Below, piece by piece: positions 4,528-39,649 of a DNA stretch of 64,000 bases. Each line of letters opens with the position of its first letter. The stretch's first letter is position 1. The notes under the pieces are model-generated. The model did not search any database, was not told where the DNA came from, and saw only the letters and a program-made list of their open reading frames with translations. The DNA comes from a virus, in IMG/VR virus record IMGVR_UViG_3300033121_000149, positions 1 through 64,000 of that record. The stretch is one strand, 5' to 3'. The translations under genes and the position numbers were made by a program.

Positions 4528-6369
4528 ATGCTATTAAATTCCAATGCAGTATCTATTGAAACGAATTTAGATCGATCACAATCAACGTCATTTGGTATAG
4601 GTGACGTTAGTGTTATTATTGAAATTCTTAGAAGTAAGATGTACACTAATCCTGTTCAAACATCAGTACAGGAATATATCTGTAATGGTAGAGATGCTAT
4701 GCGTGAAGCTAAAACATTCAGTATAACACCTTTAGAAATATGTGTACCTAATACGTTTAAGCCAACGTTTAAAGTACGTGACTTTGGTGTAGGTCTTTCA
4801 CCTGAAAGGGTACGTGATGTATTTGTTATGTATGGTAGTTCAACTAAACGTGGTGACAATGGACAGACAGGTGGATTCGGTATCGGTGCTAAGTCAGCAT
4901 GGGCATACACTGATTCATTCACTATTACTTCATTCTATAATGGAATACGTTATGAATATGTAGCTCACCTTGGAGGGAATAATTCTGGTGTACTTGATAT
5001 TATCTCCAAGACAGAAACGACTGAACCTAATGGTGTATCAGTAGAGTTCGCAGTTAAACCTAATGATGTTAATACTTTTAAGGAAGCTATCTTTAGATGT
5101 ATTAGATACTGGAGTCCTAGTAGTTACAAGTTACTAGGTACTGTTGACTTCATAGTTCCTAAGATACTTATTGAAACTGATGATATTATAGTGTTACCTT
5201 ATGAGAAAGTAAACAACATTAATGGATTCATTATCGATAATATTGTTTATCCTAATATTAAACAGGAGGGTAGTTGGCAAGAGTATCACGTATCTGGATT
5301 GTCTGGAAGATTTCTTTTGAAATTTAAAACAGGTGAGATTGATATAAATCCTAACAGAGAATCTATTATTAATAATACTAAAAATCACGAAGTTATTAAA
5401 AGAAAAATAAAGAGTGTTGAATCCTTTATACAAAAAGAACGTGATGAAGTATTAAAACACGTAAATAAATCAGCTAAAAATATTCTAAACGAGTTTAAGA
5501 AAAGACCTTGGTTAATTATTAATGGTGTTGATCTAGGTAATAATTTTATACTTGATTCAACTAAAATTAGATTACCTTTTAAAGTGATTATGAAAGGGTT
5601 AAGTAGACGAGGTAGTAAGAAAACTATTCTAGTTGATTATATTGATCACGATCAAACTATCTACGTTCAATCACTTACTGATAGCGACAATCAATTCACT
5701 AGAAAGGTTGCACCTTTTGTTAATAGTGTAAGTAATATAGTTCAATTAACTTCTGATAAATATAGTAAATGTAAAGATTATCTGGTAGGTAATGTAATCA
5801 TGTCAGATACTTTAGAGTTACCTAAAATTAAAAAGAAAGTTAAAGGTAGTAGTCAATTTGTAGATGGTATTGTCTATAGTGTTGATAGATATGGTGCTAG
5901 AACACAATACAATATATCTAAAATTAGAACATTATCCAATGCTTACGAGTTACCCGACGATATAACAGATCAAGTTGAACGTAATAGAATACTACAGTTA
6001 GGTTCATTTCTTGATGTTGAACTTATCCAAGTTCCTAAAATACATAAAGGAAAATTACCTAACTTGAAACCTATTACAGAACTTGATACTCTATTATTGC
6101 AATACAAGTCTAATGCTATCTTTGATGGTTATAATGTAAACATTCTTAAACTAATTAGAGAAGGATACTTAACTACTAAGATTCCTTTAAATACTTCGTT
6201 GTCTATTAAAGTTCCGTCATTAAATTTATTTAAAGATAAAGCTGTAGTTAAAGAGATTAATGATAGTAGAGAAACATTGAATAAGTTTATTGAATCTAAT
6301 CCTGTATTCAAAACCAATGCTGGTTTAGGTACTATTAAGTTTTATGTTAAGAGAGGTAAGACAGTATGA
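4528..6369 (+). CDS. GHKL-superfamily ATPase (613 aa), Bergerat fold motifs, no TOPRIM seen
   Basis: N-box EYICNGRDA, G1 box DFGVGLS, G2 box GGFGIGAKSAWA in N-terminal 130 aa; TAAGGAG RBS. Confidence 0.6.
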   Translation: MLLNSNAVSIETNLDRSQSTSFGIGDVSVIIEILRSKMYTNPVQTSVQEYICNGRDAMREAKTFSITPLEICVPNTFKPTFKVRDFGVGLSPERVRDVFVMYGSSTKRGDNGQTGGFGIGAKSAWAYTDSFTITSFYNGIRYEYVAHLGGNNSGVLDIISKTETTEPNGVSVEFAVKPNDVNTFKEAIFRCIRYWSPSSYKLLGTVDFIVPKILIETDDIIVLPYEKVNNINGFIIDNIVYPNIKQEGSWQEYHVSGLSGRFLLKFKTGEIDINPNRESIINNTKNHEVIKRKIKSVESFIQKERDEVLKHVNKSAKNILNEFKKRPWLIINGVDLGNNFILDSTKIRLPFKVIMKGLSRRGSKKTILVDYIDHDQTIYVQSLTDSDNQFTRKVAPFVNSVSNIVQLTSDKYSKCKDYLVGNVIMSDTLELPKIKKKVKGSSQFVDGIVYSVDRYGARTQYNISKIRTLSNAYELPDDITDQVERNRILQLGSFLDVELIQVPKIHKGKLPNLKPITELDTLLLQYKSNAIFDGYNVNILKLIREGYLTTKIPLNTSLSIKVPSLNLFKDKAVVKEINDSRETLNKFIESNPVFKTNAGLGTIKFYVKRGKTV

Positions 6370-12868: not shown

Positions 12869-13677
12869 TAATACTAAATCACTCAGGATTACAAACTATC
12901 ATCAAACCTACTATCTTTCCAGATGGTACACAACAAGTATGGAAACTAGAGTTACTTAAAAGTAATAATTGTAACATAGTATGGAAGTATGAAAATGATG
13001 GAGAGCTTATAACACTTGCACAACTCATTGACTTACTTAAAAACGAAGGTATTCAAATTACTGGTATCTTTATTCCGTTCTTACCTTACGCACGACAGGA
13101 TAAATTAATAAGCAACACAACAACATTCGGACTTAATACGTTTTGTCGTATGTTAAATCAGATAACTGGAAACATAAATGTTTATTCGTTGGATATACAT
13201 AACAATGCTTATGGATCAGTCGAAAACATCGAACCTACTGAGTATATTCTTAAAGCTATTATAGAAAGCGAAGCTAGTCGTATTTGTTTCCCAGACAAGG
13301 GAGCTTTTAGACGTTACCATTCAGTAGTTCCTGATAATAAAGGTATCATAACACTTAATAAAATGCGTAATCAGGAAACAGGTGAGATCGTTGAAATGAG
13401 TCTTATATCAAACGATAAGGCTTTAATTAATGGAGGAGTGTTAATAGTTGACGATATTTGTGACGGAGGTGCAACGTTTATTAACACCGTTAAGTCATTA
13501 CGTTCAAACAGTATATTTCAAGGTTGTAACATTGATCTATACACTACTCATGGAATATACTCAAAGGGTATAAACAATTTAATTGACAACGGTATTAACA
13601 AACTCTATACTACAGATAGCTTTTGTAAGCTAGAAGAAAACAAACGATTAAAGATATTTCAAACGAGGTTTAAATGA
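12853..13677 (+). CDS. Prs-family ribose-phosphate pyrophosphokinase homologue (274 aa), candidate ADPR pyrophosphokinase (Adps) of an NAD reconstitution pathway; alt start 12865
   Basis: IPFLPYARQDK and VLIVDDICDGGAT PRPP-binding motifs; ATGA overlap with downstream Nampt-like gene. Confidence 0.6.
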   Translation: MEITMIILNHSGLQTIIKPTIFPDGTQQVWKLELLKSNNCNIVWKYENDGELITLAQLIDLLKNEGIQITGIFIPFLPYARQDKLISNTTTFGLNTFCRMLNQITGNINVYSLDIHNNAYGSVENIEPTEYILKAIIESEASRICFPDKGAFRRYHSVVPDNKGIITLNKMRNQETGEIVEMSLISNDKALINGGVLIVDDICDGGATFINTVKSLRSNSIFQGCNIDLYTTHGIYSKGINNLIDNGINKLYTTDSFCKLEENKRLKIFQTRFK

Positions 13678-16896: not shown

Positions 16897-16972
16897 TCAG
16901 AAGTAGTTAAATTGGTTATAACGATGGATTGTGAGTCCGTAGTAAAGAGTTCGAATCTCTTCTTCTGAACCA
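16897..16972 (+). tRNA. tRNA-His: tRNA-His (anticodon GTG), no encoded G-1, A73, encoded CCA
   Basis: Hand-folded cloverleaf: acceptor TCAGAAG/CTTCTGA, D-arm GTTA/TAAC, anticodon stem ATGGA/TCCGT, loop TTGTGAG, T-arm AAGAG-TTCGAAT-CTCTT. Confidence 0.7.
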
Positions 16973-24948: not shown

Positions 24949-25081
24949 CAAAGAATTAGATACATTAATATATTCACAATTATATGAATTTTTAGTACAA
25001 CATATTGGTGTATGGGGGTCGTTTAGTTGTGTGTTAGAGTTTAATAGAAATAGATTAGAAGGAGAAATTGTTAATGAGTAA
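24935..25081 (+). CDS. MENIS-family minigene (MENINKEL, 48 aa)
   Basis: ATG in cassette end; overlaps RNR start. Confidence 0.35.
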   Translation: MENINKELDTLIYSQLYEFLVQHIGVWGSFSCVLEFNRNRLEGEIVNE

Positions 25082-26693
25082 AGATGTTTTTGGATCGTCA
25101 TTCGCTAATGATATTTTTTTACAAAAGTATTCAATGGACGGACAAGAAAATTGGGAACAAACTTGTCGAAGAGTTGTTAATGCAGTATGTGGACAATTAG
25201 TTGACGATAAAACAAAAAACAAGATTTTTAAATTTATGTTAGAACGTAAGTTTATACCGGGTGGTAGATATCTTTATTCAGCAGGTAGACCTTTTCATCA
25301 AGTAAATAACTGTTTTTTATTAAGAGCAGAAGACACTAGAGAAGGTTGGTCTAACTTAATGCACAATGTAACATCATGTTTAATGACCGGAGGTGGTATA
25401 GGTGTTTCTTATTCTAAGTTAAGACCGGAAGGTACTAAGATAACACGAACAGGTGGAACGTCTACTGGACCGATAGCATTAATGAACATGGTTAATGAAG
25501 CAGGTAGAGGTATTATGCAGGGAGGTCAACGCAGAAGTGCAATTTTCGGAGGTCTTCAATGGGATCACCCTGATGTTTTTAAATTTATGAAGTTAAAAAA
25601 CCATCCTAAAGAATTAATGGAAATGAAAAAACGAGATTTAAATTTCCAACTTCCAATGGAACTAACTAACATCTCTGTTGAATATAATACTGAATTTTTT
25701 GTAGCTATTGAAGACGAACAACACCCAAAACACGAACTAGCAAAACAAGTATGGTTAGAAAATTGTAGACAGGCATTTGAAACTGCTGAACCGGGTATGT
25801 CTTTTAATTTTCTCAAAGACAATGAGAATCTTAGAAACGCCTGTACAGAAGTTGTGAGTGAAGATGATAATGATAAATGTAACTTAGGTACTGTTTGGAT
25901 GAATAGATGCACTGATAGAAAAGAGTTTGGTGAAGTTTGTAAATATGCCACAATTTTTTTAATGTGTGGTGGTATTTATTCTGATGTTCCTAATGAGTTA
26001 ATTAGACAAGTAGGACTACGTAATAATCGTATAGGTCTAGGGTTAGGTGGTATTCACGAATGGTTAATGACAAGAGGTATGAAATACGAAGTAACTCCCG
26101 AACTTCATAAATGGTTAAACGTATATGAACAAGAATCATCGTCAACAGCATTTATTACTGCTAAACAATTAAACGTGTCTGTTCCTAAAGGCGTAAGAGC
26201 TATTGCACCAACTGGTACTATTGGAATTATCGCAGAAACAACAACAGGTATTGAACCATTATTTTGTAAAGCATATAAACGTAGATATTACAAAGAAGGT
26301 AAATGGTTACATCAGTATGTTGTTGATGGTGCTGTTAAAAGACTATTAGAACAAGGTGTTACTGTTGAAAACATTCAAGACAGTTATGACCTATCATTCA
26401 AAGATAGAGTTAAATTTCAAGCTGATGTTCAAAATTATGTAGACATGTCAATAAGTTCAACTTGTAATATGTCACAATGGGGAAGTGAATTAAATAACGA
26501 AAATACTGTTGAAAAATATTCTAAAATACTACTTAAATACGCTAAACGTTTACGTGGTTTTACAGTTTATCCAGATGGTTGTCGTAGTGGTCAACCTTTA
26601 ACAAGAGTTGATTTACAGGAAGCATTAAATAACGAGGGAACTGTTTTTGAAGAAAAGGAAACAGAATGTGTAGGTGGTGTTTGTGGGTTATAA
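25074..26693 (+). CDS. nrdJ: class II (B12-dependent, monomeric-type) ribonucleotide reductase
   Basis: GGGIGVSYSKLRP, active-site NACTE, C-terminal CVGGVCGL redox tail; GGAG RBS. Confidence 0.6.
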   Translation: MSKDVFGSSFANDIFLQKYSMDGQENWEQTCRRVVNAVCGQLVDDKTKNKIFKFMLERKFIPGGRYLYSAGRPFHQVNNCFLLRAEDTREGWSNLMHNVTSCLMTGGGIGVSYSKLRPEGTKITRTGGTSTGPIALMNMVNEAGRGIMQGGQRRSAIFGGLQWDHPDVFKFMKLKNHPKELMEMKKRDLNFQLPMELTNISVEYNTEFFVAIEDEQHPKHELAKQVWLENCRQAFETAEPGMSFNFLKDNENLRNACTEVVSEDDNDKCNLGTVWMNRCTDRKEFGEVCKYATIFLMCGGIYSDVPNELIRQVGLRNNRIGLGLGGIHEWLMTRGMKYEVTPELHKWLNVYEQESSSTAFITAKQLNVSVPKGVRAIAPTGTIGIIAETTTGIEPLFCKAYKRRYYKEGKWLHQYVVDGAVKRLLEQGVTVENIQDSYDLSFKDRVKFQADVQNYVDMSISSTCNMSQWGSELNNENTVEKYSKILLKYAKRLRGFTVYPDGCRSGQPLTRVDLQEALNNEGTVFEEKETECVGGVCGL

Positions 26694-32045: not shown

Positions 32046-32064
32046 GTATTGACATATAAACAAT

Positions 32065-32096
32065 CTCCGGTTATTCTAAAAATCGGAGAGTTTTTT
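32065..32096 (+). terminator. intrinsic terminator (TCTCCG-14 nt loop-CGGAGA G TTTTTT)
   Basis: Stem plus T6. Confidence 0.55.
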
Positions 32097-34124: not shown

Positions 34125-34186
34125 AACAAAAAAATATTAGTGACGAGTTAAGTGACTCGCTATGGAGGGAGTATGGAGAATATTAA
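34121..34186 (+). repeat. MKQENIS cassette 12, minimal form (21 aa: MKQKNISDELSDSLWREYGEY*) with a single repeat unit
   Basis: Both conserved ends present around one CTCGCTA unit. Confidence 0.8.
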
Positions 34187-34808
34187 AAAGAAACTAAGAA
34201 GATTACACGAAGATTTAGTTGACAGCTTATACTTACAAACAACTAAGGATATTATTAAAACTAAAACGTTTTTTGCTGGAGGTTGTGTACGTGATTTAAT
34301 TCGTAATAAACAACCTAAAGATTACGACCTGTTCTTCTTTTCTGAAGAGGATAGAGATCTATTCGTAAAAGAAGCTCATAATAACTTTGCATTAAAAAAG
34401 ACAGCTATAAACAACTACAATATACAAGTAGGTGATTGTAAAGTGCAAATTATAACAGTGGTTTGTGGTATGCCGGATAACCTTGTTAAAACATTCGACT
34501 TTACTATTAACCAAGGATTTTATGTTCCGCAGCTAGATATACTTAAACACGGTGACGCTGGTAGTGATTTACTTGTATGTGATAATATACAATCACCTTT
34601 GAACGCTCTTGTTAGAACTATTAAGTTTGTAAACGATGGGTATAATATAACGAGCGAAACTATGATACGATTAGGAGTAGCTGTAAGTAAAATGCAACCT
34701 ATTACTACAGAAGATCAGCTTATAGAAGCTTTGAAAGGTATAAGTACAGGTAATGAACGTTTAATAAAATCGGATTCTGAATTTAAAAGTGACGATATAC
34801 CGTTTTAG
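34173..34808 (+). CDS. minimal tRNA nucleotidyltransferase (CCA-adding enzyme head domain), start MENIKKK donated by cassette 12
   Basis: GGCVRDLI...DYDLFF class II NTase head motifs. Confidence 0.6.
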   Translation: MENIKKKLRRLHEDLVDSLYLQTTKDIIKTKTFFAGGCVRDLIRNKQPKDYDLFFFSEEDRDLFVKEAHNNFALKKTAINNYNIQVGDCKVQIITVVCGMPDNLVKTFDFTINQGFYVPQLDILKHGDAGSDLLVCDNIQSPLNALVRTIKFVNDGYNITSETMIRLGVAVSKMQPITTEDQLIEALKGISTGNERLIKSDSEFKSDDIPF

Positions 34809-34817
34809 GAGGATAGT

Positions 34818-35066
34818 ATGTTAATTGAAGTTATGGCTTTCGATGACGCTGATATAGAAGGTGATTTGTCTCCAATGTTGTTTAATACGGACACAATAAC
34901 ATGTGTAGTATTACATTCAAATAAAACAGCAAGTCTCTTCGTGAAAGATGATAGTGAACCGTTCTTAATTACAGAAGATTCTTATAATAATATTAAAGAA
35001 CGATTTATAGTTAGATACGAAGTACCTACTTCTACAACAAATCCATTCGGTACAAAGATATGGTAA
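34818..35066 (+). CDS. hypothetical protein (82 aa)
   Basis: TAGGAGGATAGTATG RBS. Confidence 0.55.
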   Translation: MLIEVMAFDDADIEGDLSPMLFNTDTITCVVLHSNKTASLFVKDDSEPFLITEDSYNNIKERFIVRYEVPTSTTNPFGTKIW

Positions 35067-35083
35067 CAACATAAGGAACGAAA

Positions 35084-35338
35084 ATGTTTATCAAAATAAC
35101 GTATTTAAGATTAGATAAACCGGTAGTGGGAATGTTTAATACTAAACACATAATAAGAATAATTCCACATTTTACATACCCTGATTACTATCTAATGTCT
35201 ATACATGATCCATATCTTTCAATTAAGGACGATAATTATTTTAAATTATCAACAGAAGAAGCTAATAGAGTTATGTCATTATTAGAAAACACGCCCACTA
35301 ATGCCGTTAATAAAGTTTCACAAGTTATTAAATGGTAA
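35084..35338 (+). CDS. hypothetical protein (84 aa)
   Basis: AAGGAACGAAAATG. Confidence 0.5.
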   Translation: MFIKITYLRLDKPVVGMFNTKHIIRIIPHFTYPDYYLMSIHDPYLSIKDDNYFKLSTEEANRVMSLLENTPTNAVNKVSQVIKW

Positions 35339-35356
35339 CAACATAAGGAGAAAAAT

Positions 35357-35626
35357 ATGTTTAAGAAAAAAGAAAAAACTACGGAACAAATTGTAAACGA
35401 TGCTCTTGGAATTGAAGAACAAGCTCAGTCCGAAGAAGTTAAAGTACCTGAACAACCTTTACAACAAGAAGTAGCGTTCAGTTTAGTTAAAGAAGACGGT
35501 GTTTATAAAGTAGTTGCTGTTAAATTCGATATGAACTCTGCTGTTGTTTTAGAAGAATTTAAAGAACGCTCTGTTGCAATCGAATCGTTTAAAATTCAAG
35601 TAGCTAGATCAGGTATTTTAGGATAA
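35357..35626 (+). CDS. hypothetical protein (89 aa)
   Basis: AAGGAGAAAAATATG. Confidence 0.55.
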   Translation: MFKKKEKTTEQIVNDALGIEEQAQSEEVKVPEQPLQQEVAFSLVKEDGVYKVVAVKFDMNSAVVLEEFKERSVAIESFKIQVARSGILG

Positions 35627-35627
35627 T

Positions 35628-37244
35628 ATGGACGAAATTACTAAACTTATATACGGTAAATCGCCTATTGAACGTATAGTTAATATAGAAGTCGTCGATG
35701 ATGTTGCATATTTATATGTACTTCAAGACGATTTCAGTATTAAACGTATTGATGTTCCTAATAGGTTTTGGGTATTAAGTAGTACTCCTATAGGTAAAAA
35801 ATCAGTAAGACTTGCTGGTAATTTACACTATAAATACGGTAATCAGTTCAAAACACGTAATGATTTTATGGACTTTCGTACTAAAACAAAACGTTATTAC
35901 GATGTTTATAGTATATTCAACTCAACAGAAGCTTTAATGGTTAAAGATGGGTATACATACTTTAAAGGATTAAAGCATACTGATCCACCTATTCTATGTT
36001 TCGATATTGAATCAACCTCTCTTAAAAAAGATGAGAACTCTAAAGTTCTTTTAATCAGTAATACATTCAGAAGAAACGGAATTATTCAAAAACGTTTATT
36101 TTCATACGACGAATACGAAAATGAAGCTGATATGATTGACGATTGGGCTTCGTGGGTTTGTGAAATAGACCCTGCTATTGTTTGTGGACATAATATATTT
36201 GGATATGACTTACCTTATCTAGATTTTATCTATAAAAGAATACGTGGACCTAAAGCTAAGATACAATTAGGTCGTGATGGTGGATATTTACACATAGATA
36301 GCTATATGAATAAGAAACGTGTAGATGGTTCACGTAGTATTTCTTACCCTAAAACTGAATTATTTGGTCGAGAAATTATCGATACAATGTTTCTAGCTAT
36401 AAACTATGACGCTGCTACAAAAAAATACGAAAATTACGGATTAAAGCAGATTATTAAACAAGAAAATTTAGAAAAAGAAAATCGTGTATTCTATGATGCT
36501 TCTCAGATTCGATTTAATTATAAAAAAGCAGACGAATGGGATAAAATTAAACGATATTGTATTGATGACGGTGATGATGCGTTATCTTTATATGATTTAA
36601 TGGTTCCAGCTTTGTTTTACTTTACACGTTCAATACCAAAATCGTTCCAAGCTATGTGTGAATCAGCTACTGGTTCACAATTAAATTCATTATTAGTTCG
36701 TAGTTATTTACAAGATAAACACAGTATACCTAAATCTAGTGAAAAACTTGAGTATCCCGGTGCTATATCATTTGGAGTTCCCGGAATTTACAGAAATTGC
36801 GTAAAGCAAGATATAAAATCGGAATATCCTAGTTGTATACTCCAGTATAATATTTATGACAAAGAAAAAGATCCCAAAGCTAACTTCTATAAGATGGTTG
36901 AATTTTTCACACTTGAACGTTTTAGAAATAAAGATTTATTTAAAGAAACTAAACTCAAATATTATTCGGATATAGAACAATCACAAAAGATCGGTATTAA
37001 CAGTGCGTACGGACTACTAGGTGCTACTGGATTAAATTTCAATTCACCTGCTAATGCAGCACTTGTTACTGAAAAAGGCAGAGAAGTAATTTCTACAGCT
37101 ATACAATGGGCTTCATCTCGCCCTGTATCGTTTTGGTTACAACAAGCAGGAGTTGAAACAGTATATGAAAAACAAGATATTGAAAGTTATTCTAACGATG
37201 GTGTTATTCAATCTAACGAGTTGTTCGACGTTGAAGTGTCATAG
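35628..37244 (+). CDS. family B DNA polymerase, N-terminal part (3'-5' exonuclease + pol motifs A and B)
   Basis: Exo I FDIESTS, Exo II HNIFGYDLPYL, Exo III YCIDDGDDA, motif A DIKSEYPS, motif B KIGINSAYG. Confidence 0.75.
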   Translation: MDEITKLIYGKSPIERIVNIEVVDDVAYLYVLQDDFSIKRIDVPNRFWVLSSTPIGKKSVRLAGNLHYKYGNQFKTRNDFMDFRTKTKRYYDVYSIFNSTEALMVKDGYTYFKGLKHTDPPILCFDIESTSLKKDENSKVLLISNTFRRNGIIQKRLFSYDEYENEADMIDDWASWVCEIDPAIVCGHNIFGYDLPYLDFIYKRIRGPKAKIQLGRDGGYLHIDSYMNKKRVDGSRSISYPKTELFGREIIDTMFLAINYDAATKKYENYGLKQIIKQENLEKENRVFYDASQIRFNYKKADEWDKIKRYCIDDGDDALSLYDLMVPALFYFTRSIPKSFQAMCESATGSQLNSLLVRSYLQDKHSIPKSSEKLEYPGAISFGVPGIYRNCVKQDIKSEYPSCILQYNIYDKEKDPKANFYKMVEFFTLERFRNKDLFKETKLKYYSDIEQSQKIGINSAYGLLGATGLNFNSPANAALVTEKGREVISTAIQWASSRPVSFWLQQAGVETVYEKQDIESYSNDGVIQSNELFDVEVS

Positions 37245-37264
37245 CTTTAATTATTTAAGATGTG

Positions 37265-37294
37265 TTGACAATTGTAAGTCTTTAGGTTTATCAT
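37265..37294 (+). promoter_or_regulatory. candidate internal promoter TTGACA-N18-TATCAT in the gap between PolB halves
   Basis: Consensus -35 and TAnnnT -10. Confidence 0.3.
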
Positions 37295-37339
37295 ATGATC
37301 AGACCATAGAGGTCTGTAAACTAGAGAGAGAACATAGTT

Positions 37340-38050
37340 GTGCAAAAATTAACCCATAATTTCACAATTGTTAATACAGACACTGACTCCATTTCTTTTT
37401 GTAAACAGGATATGTCATCTTATTCTGAAGATGAGATAAAATCACTATTAAACGACATTAATAGTATATTACCTGAAAAAATTAAAATGGACGACGACGG
37501 ATATTATGAAACAGTAATAGTTATTAAAACTAAAAATTATGTACTGTATGACGGTAAAAAAGTAAAGATAAAGGGTTCAGCACTTAAAGCATCAACTAAA
37601 GAACCTGCACTTAAAGAATATATTAATAAATGTATCGACATCATACTACACACTCGAGATATTGAAGACATTAAAACTAAGATGATTGAAACGTATGAAA
37701 CTTATGTTCACGAAATCATGACTTTAACAGATATTAAACGATGGTCTTCACGTAAAACTATTTCAGAAAAAACAATTAATAGTACACGATCTAATGAAAT
37801 AAAGATAATGAACGCTATTAAGGATATTGAATGGTCTGAAGGTGATCGAGTATATGTTTATTATGATAAACAAGAACAACTTAAATTGATTCAGAATTGG
37901 GTTAACGATCACGATAGAGTTCGTTTACTTGGTAAACTATTCGATACATCACTAGTGTTTGAAACTATATTACCTATTAAAGAAATGTTTATTAAATATG
38001 AACTAAAAAAGAACAAACACTTTTTATTGGAAAGAGGTTATGAAGTATGA
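37340..38050 (+). CDS. family B DNA polymerase, C-terminal part (motif C DTDS), GTG start, different frame from N-part
   Basis: IVNTDTDSISF motif C 13 aa from start; frame open from 37325. Confidence 0.65.
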   Translation: MQKLTHNFTIVNTDTDSISFCKQDMSSYSEDEIKSLLNDINSILPEKIKMDDDGYYETVIVIKTKNYVLYDGKKVKIKGSALKASTKEPALKEYINKCIDIILHTRDIEDIKTKMIETYETYVHEIMTLTDIKRWSSRKTISEKTINSTRSNEIKIMNAIKDIEWSEGDRVYVYYDKQEQLKLIQNWVNDHDRVRLLGKLFDTSLVFETILPIKEMFIKYELKKNKHFLLERGYEV

Positions 38051-38433
38051 CTAACGAAGAATTATTTGATGAATATTTTAACAAATTATATAACGAAGCC
38101 ATGCAGTTTAGAGATTGGCAAACCTGTGAAAACTTACTAGATTTTAAGGAAGTAATGAGGAGTTCATTTATAGCAGGGGCTTCAACTAAAGAAAAGAAGT
38201 CTGAACAAATTCTAGAACACTGTAATAAAATAGCTGACGCTGACGGTAAAGCATATAGCGACTTAAATAACAAACTAAATAAAGCAATTGAAACTCTTGA
38301 ATACTATGCTAATGGCAGTAGTTACGACAGTTGTGAAGCGAGCATGGTTTATTATTATTTATGGGAAGAACAGGATACTATAGGAAAAAGAGCACAAGAA
38401 ACATTAGATGAAATACGAGGAAAACATGAGTAG
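38047..38433 (+). CDS. hypothetical protein (128 aa)
   Basis: ATGA overlap. Confidence 0.55.
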   Translation: MTNEELFDEYFNKLYNEAMQFRDWQTCENLLDFKEVMRSSFIAGASTKEKKSEQILEHCNKIADADGKAYSDLNNKLNKAIETLEYYANGSSYDSCEASMVYYYLWEEQDTIGKRAQETLDEIRGKHE

Positions 38434-38668
38434 TGAGATACAACAATTAAAAGAAGGTAAAGCTTACAGACATTCAAATCCTACAACTCTATCAATAAAA
38501 ATTGTTAAAATAATTAAAGAAACAGATGTTGACATTTTAATAAATGTTAAGTATATTAATGATAAGGGTAATTGGATACAGTATCCGTATTCCAAGGATG
38601 GGACGGATACCCTTTTACTCAGTAAAGACGATTATAAAAATTGGACTAAGTTTAATATTGGAGGATAG
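38426..38668 (+). CDS. hypothetical protein (80 aa)
   Basis: GAGGAAAACATG. Confidence 0.5.
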   Translation: MSSEIQQLKEGKAYRHSNPTTLSIKIVKIIKETDVDILINVKYINDKGNWIQYPYSKDGTDTLLLSKDDYKNWTKFNIGG

Positions 38669-39649
38669 ATGGGACACTTTGTAGTAAAAAGCAAGACAAA
38701 TTTAGATAGTTTAAATATCGGAGACATTATTAATGAGTCTGATTTCGCTTCTTTAACACCTGAAGGTAACTTTGTTCAATTAGAATATATCGATAAGTCT
38801 GACTTCACTAGAGGTAATTTAGAAGTTAAACCGGGTATTTTCACTATTATTAAAGATATGTCTGGCTATCACTTAGAACCTACTAACTTCACTAAAGACG
38901 TTATTATGGAAGCATTTATTAACACTAAACAAATTACAGATAAAGCTGATATGTTTTTTGAGAATGCTCCTGTTTATAAGGAATTCGGATTTGATATTGC
39001 TAAACGTGGTATTTTATTATACGGTCCCCCGGGAACTGGTAAATCTACATCATTAGCTGCAATTGCTAATAAGTATACAGCTACTAATGATACTATTGTT
39101 GTGGTATGGAATACTGATAAATACGAAGCACATGAAATTAAAGACTTTATTAAAACATTTGATTACAATAAACACGGTGTTAAACGACTTATTTTAATAG
39201 CAGAAGATATCGGAGGAGTTGAAATCGATCAAGTGCGTATGCGTTCAGATAGTTCATTATTAGCATTACTTGATAATCAAGAAAAAACGTTTACGACAAC
39301 TACATTAATTATCGCTACAACTAACTACCCTGAAGTATTTATGGGTAATTTAACAAACAGACCTAATAGATTCGACGATAAGATCGAAGTAGGGTTTCCA
39401 ACAGCAGAAGCTAGACAATCGTTATTAAAGTTTTTTGATAAAAAGAACATGATCACAGAAGAAGCATCTGAATTAATAGCATCTAAAAAATGTGAGAAGT
39501 TTAGTCCAGCTCATATTCGTGAAATTATTGTTAGAGCCGCTATTCACAGAAAAACATTAGTAGAAGTAATTAATGAGATGTTAACGGAGATTAATCATTA
39601 TGAAAAAGCATTCCAAAAAACGAGATCCACTGGCTTATTTAACGACTAA
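38669..39649 (+). CDS. classic-clade AAA ATPase (326 aa), paralogue of 23726-24616
   Basis: GPPGTGKST, LILIAEDIGG, IIATTNYPE...NRPNRFD. Confidence 0.7.
   Translation: MGHFVVKSKTNLDSLNIGDIINESDFASLTPEGNFVQLEYIDKSDFTRGNLEVKPGIFTIIKDMSGYHLEPTNFTKDVIMEAFINTKQITDKADMFFENAPVYKEFGFDIAKRGILLYGPPGTGKSTSLAAIANKYTATNDTIVVVWNTDKYEAHEIKDFIKTFDYNKHGVKRLILIAEDIGGVEIDQVRMRSDSSLLALLDNQEKTFTTTTLIIATTNYPEVFMGNLTNRPNRFDDKIEVGFPTAEARQSLLKFFDKKNMITEEASELIASKKCEKFSPAHIREIIVRAAIHRKTLVEVINEMLTEINHYEKAFQKTRSTGLFND

Follow-up and report, generated by a model that had tools for sequence, protein, structure and literature searches.

Polymerase genes divided into two adjacent parts have been described in T4-like phages, in which, as outlined in PMC2988022, a seg-type endonuclease gene interrupts gene 43 in Aeromonas phage 25, and the interruption of the same gene in phage 44RR is an intercistronic untranslated sequence. 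The products of phage 25, 43A and 43B, co-purify and are active (Petrov et al., 2010, as summarised in PMC2988022); the content of Petrov, Ratnayaka & Karam (2010) is given here second-hand, from PMC2988022 (Edgell et al.) and PMC3061061. In archaea, the split in family B DNA polymerase (PolB) has been ascribed to faulty intein excision (Makarova et al., PMC4104785). Other phage genes in pieces include nrdA, split by mobE in phage Aeh1, and the T4 topoisomerase gene 39/60, split by mobA (PMC2988022), and an engineered Pfu polymerase made as two fragments by termination and reinitiation behaves as the intact enzyme and is fully active (PMC3061061). In the present study, we analysed a PolB gene that is divided between two open reading frames (ORFs) at positions 35,628 to 38,050 of a 64,000-nucleotide (nt) stretch of viral DNA, hereafter called the window (IMG/VR record IMGVR_UViG_3300033121_000149, positions 1 to 64,000). 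Judging from the sequences of this locus and its relatives, the two cistrons very probably yield two polypeptides that associate non-covalently into one replicative PolB.

The first of the two ORFs (ORF1, 35628..37244, + strand) encodes the large, N-terminal fragment of 538 residues, as indicated by its translation and by Pfam matches to PF03104 (PolB exonuclease, E=3.8e-10) and PF00136 (PolB polymerase). It contains the N-terminal domain, the 3'-5' exonuclease with Exo I (FDIES, residues 125-129), Exo II (HNIFGYDLPY, residues 188-197) and Exo III (YCIDDGDD, residues 310-317), palm motif A (DIKSEYPS, residues 395-402), the fingers with motif B (KIGINSAYG, residues 454-462) and the first palm helix after the fingers. 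It ends in a lineage-specific C-terminal tail of 41 residues (residues 498-538, 37119..37241, + strand; RPVSFWLQQAGVET...FDVEVS). The second ORF (ORF2, 37340..38050, + strand) encodes the small, C-terminal fragment of 236 residues from a GTG start, and covers the palm strand leading into motif C (DTDS, codons 14-17, 37379-37390), the KNY motif (37532-37540) and the thumb. The motifs that define family B were thus all found, with Exo I-III and motifs A and B in ORF1 and the DTDS of motif C in ORF2, and the coordinates and motif content that an earlier note on this DNA had given for both ORFs proved accurate throughout. ORF1 stops at a TAG (37242-37244), beyond which its frame contains many more stops, and an intercistronic untranslated spacer of 95 nt (37245..37339, no strand assigned) precedes ORF2. 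The two ORFs lie in different frames (start position mod 3 of 0 for ORF1 and 2 for ORF2), and the ORF2 frame is open only from 37325, an in-frame TAG standing just before it (37322-37324). Because this frame holds six stops within 37214-37322, ORF1 and ORF2 are not joinable by one frameshift, in agreement with the earlier note, which offered four explanations for the arrangement: a genuine two-subunit polymerase, translational bypass, the remnant of an intron or intein, and an assembly error.

The last of these would be an assembly or sequencing artefact that broke one ORF, for which only the general prior of errors in metagenomic contigs speaks. Three further contigs, each from a different sample (one Joint Genome Institute metagenome and two Logan-assembled SRA runs), encode the same 538-residue protein, and on each of them the 236-residue gene follows 95 nt downstream and is called as a separate gene. 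The junction (37000-37500, 501 nt) is base-for-base the same in all three further contigs, which represent two assembly pipelines, and two of the three carry 23-31 single-nucleotide polymorphisms (SNPs) relative to the window outside the junction. Furthermore, the difference from fused relatives consists of about 240 nt of extra sequence rather than an indel, and the same architecture occurs in dozens of relatives. With independent assemblies agreeing base for base at the junction, and with 29 relatives divided at this very residue, assembly error is excluded for the split junction, and an artefact of any kind has a negligible probability.

A DNA search with 35000-39000 against cultured phage genomes returned no match. 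The nearest cultured relatives by protein sequence are Salinibacter phages, which have a single continuous PolB gene (29% identity, tblastn), and the identity of the window PolB to that of any cultured phage is at most 29%. Residues 62-494 of ORF1 and residues 9-232 of ORF2 are collinear with one Salinibacter phage gene, with 6 codons between the two aligned parts (tblastn). Relative to fused metagenomic homologues, homology stops at ...IQWASS (ORF1 residue 497) and restarts at HNFTIVNTDTDS (ORF2 residue 6). The polymerase sequence is thus complete across ORF1 and ORF2, and the roughly 240 nt that are extra relative to the fused relatives are made up of the 41-residue tail, the stop codon, the 95-nt spacer and the 5-6 leading codons of ORF2.

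Homologues of ORF1 numbered 1705, and the lengths of the best 120 (51-58% identity) were read and counted by eye. Among these 120, 54 are 494-582 residues long and represent N fragments, and the rest are 647-767 residues long, nearly all of them 710-767. A scan of viral contigs with the single window protein gave no match, and an alignment-seeded scan of IMG/VR was needed, which gave 78 loci; the motif B and motif C blocks were located in each, and 76 loci were informative. The comparison of orthologous polymerases in related phages, which the earlier note had proposed as a check, showed three states of the gene. PolB is fused without an insert in 34 of the 76 loci (WAxxKGFxIVNADTDS), fused with an in-frame insert at exactly this site in 13 (26-38 residues, or 92 residues in three loci), giving 47 fused relatives in total, and split into two ORFs at this residue in 29. 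The split state thus accounts for about 40% of a large metagenomic phage family. In a rough neighbour-joining tree of the N parts, the split state was scattered over many clades, and the clade of the window held split or loop-bearing members only. This scattering fits repeated fission as well as spread through homing-associated gene conversion, two histories that the tree does not separate. The 92-residue in-frame inserts at this pre-motif-C site are found in L063, L064 and L066 (~4952-5229). In another locus, L075, the C fragment (4914-5222) ends after 102 residues, and a second interruption or a frameshift may be present.

The two homology blocks of the split loci are separated by 22-1079 nt of DNA, and the stop-to-start gaps range from -14 nt to more than 1 kb. 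Each of the 25 distinct split junctions that were examined (24 relatives and the window) has an in-frame start 0-6 codons ahead of (H/Y)(N/D)F, with which the conserved block (H/Y)(N/D)F-x-I-x-x-DTDS begins. The start codon is ATG in 23 of them, GTG in the window and TTG in the nearest relative, L058. Seven split loci have an overlap of 4-14 nt between this start and the stop upstream of it, and so has the second-nearest relative (P0002/L085); overlaps of this kind are a usual mark of translational coupling. The C fragments that stand alone are of full length, with 222-285 residues in 23 of 24, and D14, T15, D16, K65, N66 and Y67 are, among other residues, invariant in an alignment of 25 of them. 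On the N-terminal side, the tails share WA(S/T)GKxxxYW followed by an acidic stretch, which corresponds in the alignment to the first half of the loop of fused relatives; within this alignment, the ORF1 tail of the window is homologous in its first part to the helix extension of the loop.

These tails bear on the proposal that a self-splicing intron of ~240 nt (37119-37354) is cut from the mRNA to leave one continuous ORF. The amount of extra sequence fits the size range of group I introns lacking an ORF, the interval 37225-37360 folds at -28.2 kcal/mol with a z-score of -2.0, and phage polymerase genes are known targets of introns (PMC3428280). However, the first part of the supposed intron is homologous, as protein, to the loop in fused relatives, and because a tail of the ORF1 type corresponds to the first half of that loop, it is coding sequence and not an intron. 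With cmscan, no Rfam group I or group II intron was matched at E<=10 in 36800-37700, where only chance snoRNA-like and riboswitch-like matches with E above 1 were obtained, and none was found at gathering score in the window. Moreover, where the stop and start codons of relatives with the same split point overlap, the homology blocks are no more than 22-73 nt apart, and the spacer is conserved in no relative. An intron is thus highly improbable, and the earlier note's idea of an intron or intein remnant finds no backing in the coding tail, the stop/start overlaps, the Rfam searches or the domain content, which includes no Hint domain.

Translational bypass of the T4 gene 60 type would instead produce one polypeptide by hopping from the end of ORF1 to ORF2. 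A stop directly follows ORF1, and a hairpin lies within the gap, as such a mechanism would have it. However, the take-off codon TCA (37239-37241) finds no matching in-frame landing codon, since the ORF2 frame contains no TCN between its opening at 37325 and the conserved HNF (37355). The hairpin is located 56 nt past the stop and not at the take-off site, and the gap is 95 nt compared with 50 nt in T4 gene 60. Relatives with gaps of anything from -14 nt to kilobase, gene-bearing ones, and one with unlinked halves, also argue against bypass, which we consider extremely improbable. In the unlinked case, IMGVR_UViG_3300020049_005939 (74.9 kb), both genes are on one strand, and that for the C fragment, which has its own ATG, is located 8.1 kb upstream of that for the N fragment. 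Because of this order, joining in cis would be impossible there and the halves could be made only as separate polypeptides, unless the contig is misassembled. In this contig, the N fragment (L031 3489-5027, contig ~9031-10569) and the C fragment (L125 254-928) are each adjoined by a similar small gene (L031 6332-6745 and L125 13-261), and the non-adjacent halves may reflect either rearrangement through paralogues or misassembly.

Separate halves could also be ligated by protein trans-splicing. In such fractured genes, known from metagenomes and from phage PolB, a free-standing homing endonuclease gene lies between the halves of a split intein (PMC2677866; PMC6892783). In line with this possibility, the loop inserts in relatives start with Ser and end with His-Asn or His-Asp, and a related contig has a real DnaB intein. 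However, Pfam detected no Hint or intein domain in ORF1 or ORF2, and the extra ~47 residues (41 + 6) are far below the size of a Hint fold. Phe occupies position +1 instead of Cys, Ser or Thr, and many relatives have YNF, HDF or NNF at this position. Because the tails are too short and no Hint domain is present, an active intein is excluded, and ligation of the halves by a split intein is scarcely credible.

The cut has a defined position in the PolB fold. By sequence alignment (KOD match E=1e-22), the split site corresponds to K531-F534 of KOD polymerase, 6-9 residues ahead of D540 in motif C. Structural detail was taken from an AlphaFold2 model of the loop-bearing fused homologue P0059, not of the window proteins, with a mean predicted local distance difference test (pLDDT) score of 88.8 and a predicted template modelling (TM) score of 0.80. 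The model has the PolB fold, matching the 9°N, KOD, Tgo and Pfu polymerases with TM scores of 0.70-0.73 (E~1e-31). In this model, the first half of the insert prolongs the long helix of the palm (472-508), to which residues 494-508, equivalent to the start of the tail, belong; ~20 residues then follow as a loop (block-mean pLDDT 61-65) before the chain enters the DTD-bearing strand. Because this loop has low pLDDT and fused relatives carry inserts of 26-92 residues, the cut is predicted to lie in a flexible, insertion-tolerant surface loop of the palm, just ahead of motif C. Considering the known PolB fold, motif A of the large subunit and motif C of the small subunit would have to meet across an interface.

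The spacer contains possible signals for separate expression of ORF2. The element TTGACA-N18-TATCAT, to which the earlier note had drawn attention, is present at 37265..37294 (+ strand); it agrees with the sigma-70-type consensus at 11 of 12 positions and is a candidate ORF2 promoter. None of 300 shuffles of the local 115 nt reached 11/12. On the + strand of the window, 11 of the 13 occurrences of TTGAC[AT]-N16-18-TAnnnT lie within 120 nt upstream of a gene start, compared with a background of 23% (p=6e-6), and this proximity holds with stricter ORF-length thresholds (p=3e-4 and 8e-5). As a sequence match, the promoter-like element is therefore real, and it is statistically plausible in this phage. 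The strong sigma-70-like motifs ahead of + strand starts are located at 13583, 15380, 20041, 23675, 28313, 28489, 32049, 37265, 38529, 40131 and 43705, clustering throughout the replication/early module, which suggests that this module has many host-type promoters; the motif at 32049 overlaps a terminator-like hairpin (32064-32089). Downstream of the candidate promoter, the small hairpin in the gap (CAGACC-ATAGA-GGTCTG, 37300..37316, + strand) would fall where the 5' end of an ORF2 transcript is predicted; it lacks a T-run, is not a canonical terminator and was not called as a terminator. A purine-rich stretch weakly resembling a Shine-Dalgarno (SD) sequence (AGAGAGAGAA, 37323..37332, + strand) lies 8-17 nt upstream of the GTG. 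The core SD motif occurs at 46 of the 78 window ORFs, with G enrichment at -10 to -6, and, together with the promoter motifs near gene starts, this suggests that the host uses sigma-70 and SD signals of the conventional type.

Several observations weigh against two independently expressed, functional subunits. The start signals of ORF2 comprise only a GTG and a weak SD, and the ORF1 tail is long, with 41 residues compared with the usual 8-25, only its first ~12 residues resembling those of relatives. The gaps of split relatives contain no promoter match above chance, the element not being conserved, and weak promoter-like matches are not enriched in the region (72 compared with 79.6 in shuffles). 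Because no relative's gap has such a match, the promoter would be a feature of the lineage, not part of the split itself. In addition, ORF2 and the spacer show zero variation among the available contigs, and purifying selection on ORF2 is thus not measurable there.

The weak start signals and the long, poorly conserved tail might be taken to indicate a decaying pseudogene, that is, a polymerase broken by an indel in a phage that replicates by means of another polymerase. Motif A of the window (36810-36833) may appear to point in the same direction, since it reads DIKSEYPS, with Glu in place of the usual Leu of DxxSLYPS. This Leu is nearly invariant across family B polymerases and is a fidelity determinant in RB69 polymerase and Pol delta. 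However, SEYPS also occurs in P0002 and P0003, the nearest two relatives, and is absent from the other members of the family, whose consensus is SLYPS, and the catalytic motifs are all intact in both ORFs. The SNPs in ORF1 among the variant contigs comprise 12 synonymous and 0 non-synonymous changes, and 29 diverged relatives retain the split, their C fragments being of full length, with DTD and KNY invariant. Furthermore, a limited look at the 64-kb window, in which 15 ORFs including most of the largest were scanned, revealed no other DNA polymerase. A pseudogene is accordingly improbable, if somewhat less so than an intron.

Considering these results, we return to the two-subunit polymerase, the one among the four explanations of the earlier note that the comparative evidence strongly supports, and propose the following scenario. 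The exonuclease, motif A of the palm and the motif B-bearing fingers would come from the large subunit encoded by ORF1, and the beta-hairpin with the motif C aspartates, together with the thumb, from the small subunit encoded by ORF2, so that the catalytic palm sheet would be completed across the subunit interface. Assembly of two such fragments into an active enzyme has an experimental precedent in the 43A/43B products of phage 25 (PMC2988022) and is supported by the engineered split Pfu polymerase, because it acts like the intact enzyme (PMC3061061). Because the spacer has a promoter match, a hairpin and a weak SD before the GTG, ORF2 is probably initiated independently and may have its own transcript. 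At the junction, related phages carry free-standing GIY-YIG or HNH-like genes or cargo genes, and the window has only the 95-nt untranslated spacer.

The gap contains ORFs in about ten split relatives, and these are mostly GIY-YIG or HNH-like homing endonuclease genes. Pfam assigned endonuclease genes with GIY-YIG, NUMOD3 and I-HmuI-like matches to the gaps of L015, L028 and L067. The gap ORFs of L038 and L059 resemble GIY-YIG genes by eye only, outside the Pfam scan, and the HNH-like genes are weakly supported, by E=0.003 in L023 (short of the Pfam cut-off), E=0.03 in L071 and no more than a NUMOD-like DNA-binding match in L058. Other small gap genes encode zinc-ribbon-like ORFs, DUF3307 and DUF6939. 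In L027 (4975-6059) and L075 (4078-4921), the junction holds three non-endonuclease ORFs each, namely a CxxC...CxxC zinc-ribbon-like ORF that overlaps the tail of the N fragment, an ORF of DUF6939 or DUF3307, and a further small ORF. The junction, once split, thus appears to gather cargo genes. The contig L082 (1-2131; GCA_017886315.1, JAFMOA010000251.1) has, upstream of the split polymerase, a DnaB-type helicase gene with an intein comprising Hint and LAGLIDADG domains. Given this intein and the endonuclease genes at the junction of relatives, the replication module of the family hosts several kinds of selfish element.

Identical contigs apart, the spacer of the window showed no similarity to the gaps of relatives or to the rest of the window. 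A third-frame ORF of 68 residues (37153-37359, + strand), rich in Cys, spans the ORF1 tail, the whole spacer and the start of ORF2, and had no match in Pfam. In a blastx comparison of the spacer with the gap ORFs of relatives, the best match was to the HNH motif of L071 (E=0.68). The 68-residue ORF matched the HNH core of L071 in a pairwise BLASTP comparison (E=0.021), which is non-significant after multiple testing, and did not match L023. This ORF could be an endonuclease remnant or a chance ORF, and is a weak lead.

A wider scenario is that the pre-motif-C loop is a family-wide hot spot of repeated, independent PolB splits, which we regard as rather unlikely. According to this scenario, two unrelated families of free-standing homing endonucleases would target the conserved motif C DNA and drive the splits, and occasional re-fusion would leave the 26-38-residue loop as a scar. 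The split junction would then act as an ordinary intergenic site that collects cargo, and the halves could drift kilobases apart. The window would have lost its endonuclease and kept an orphan sigma-70-type promoter, which may uncouple expression of the motif C/thumb subunit from that of the exonuclease/fingers subunit. If true, such uncoupled expression would permit control of the stoichiometry or the production of a stand-alone exonuclease fragment.

The window contains further features outside the polymerase locus. The coding strand flips from + to - near 46.3 kb (~46300). The + strand side carries replication and nucleotide metabolism genes (rIIA-like, NAMPT, ribonucleotide reductase, primase-helicase, PolB, AAA ATPase and exonuclease), and the - strand side past ~46.3 kb carries large structural and tail-like genes. 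A second split gene was suspected at the ribonucleotide reductase (25068-26693) and rejected, the neighbouring ORF encoding an unrelated ATPase-like protein. At 34152-34808 (+ strand), the window encodes a 218-residue protein with a match to the head domain of poly(A) polymerase (nucleotidyltransferase), and a near-identical gene in L079, called at 211 residues, has a precomputed annotation as PF26128 Gad2; the product may be an anti-Gabija counter-defence protein. A single tRNA gene was found at 16897-16969 (+ strand, 63 bits).

For annotation, these results mean that PolB fragments of ~500 and ~225 residues in this abundant uncultured phage family are real genes rather than pseudogenes or products of frameshift errors, and that they should be neither merged nor removed. 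The palm loop directly ahead of motif C would be the fourth natural cut site in PolB, the others being the fingers tip, the palm past motif C and the junction of the N-terminal and palm domains, and it may be useful to engineers of split or circularly permuted polymerases. Furthermore, this one site occurs in the family in dozens of natural variants, whether fused, looped, split or endonuclease-bearing, which makes the family a good comparative system for the fragmentation of essential genes by homing endonucleases and for the means by which the pieces keep their function.

Compared with known systems, the locus resembles most closely the split gp43 of T4-like phages (43A/43B; Aeromonas and Acinetobacter phages 25, 44RR, 31, 65 and 133), which, in the published summaries (PMC2988022; PMC3061061), likewise consists of two adjacent PolB cistrons. 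According to the same summaries, the junction in that group is a homing endonuclease gene or an untranslated sequence, related phages have unsplit orthologues, and motifs A and C are on different polypeptides. The window and its relatives share the marks of a two-cistron polymerase, namely full coverage of the enzyme, a start for each cistron, comparable junction content and unsplit orthologues. However, the T4-like polymerases are split at the fingers tip (PMC3061061), whereas the window is cut in the palm, past the fingers (KOD ~531-534) and 6-9 residues ahead of motif C. Because the cut site is in the palm loop and not at the fingers tip, the window polymerase is best regarded, on its sequence, as analogous to the T4-like 43A/43B group and not as a homologous member of it. 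Unlike the T4-like phages, the lineage of the window is unrelated and uncultured, with genomes of roughly 55-105 kb, and its family differs in that the split state is very common.

In archaea, the PolB of Methanothermobacter thermautotrophicus (Kelman et al., 1999), like that of other Methanobacteriales, is naturally split, also in the palm near motif C, and needs both polypeptides. As described in PMC3061061, that split lies ~83 residues after Pfu residue 467, at ~550, just past motif C, whereas the window split corresponds to Pfu ~532-535. The cut in the window being just ahead of motif C, the catalytic DTD would be on the small subunit, unlike in M. thermautotrophicus; the two archaeal genes are 85 kb apart and those of the window 95 nt. 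In nrdA/mobE and gene 39/60/mobA, as in the window relatives with GIY-YIG or HNH-like genes at the junction, an endonuclease gene splits the gene of an essential enzyme, and in those two systems the products reassemble; those enzymes are different, however, and the window itself has no endonuclease gene, only a very weak, non-significant HNH resemblance in the spacer. The engineered Pfu split is artificial, archaeal and located in the fingers at 467/468, whereas the split in the window is natural and located in the palm loop. Split PolB as such is thus already known from T4-like phages, and what is new here is the position of the cut and the uncultured lineage in which it occurs.

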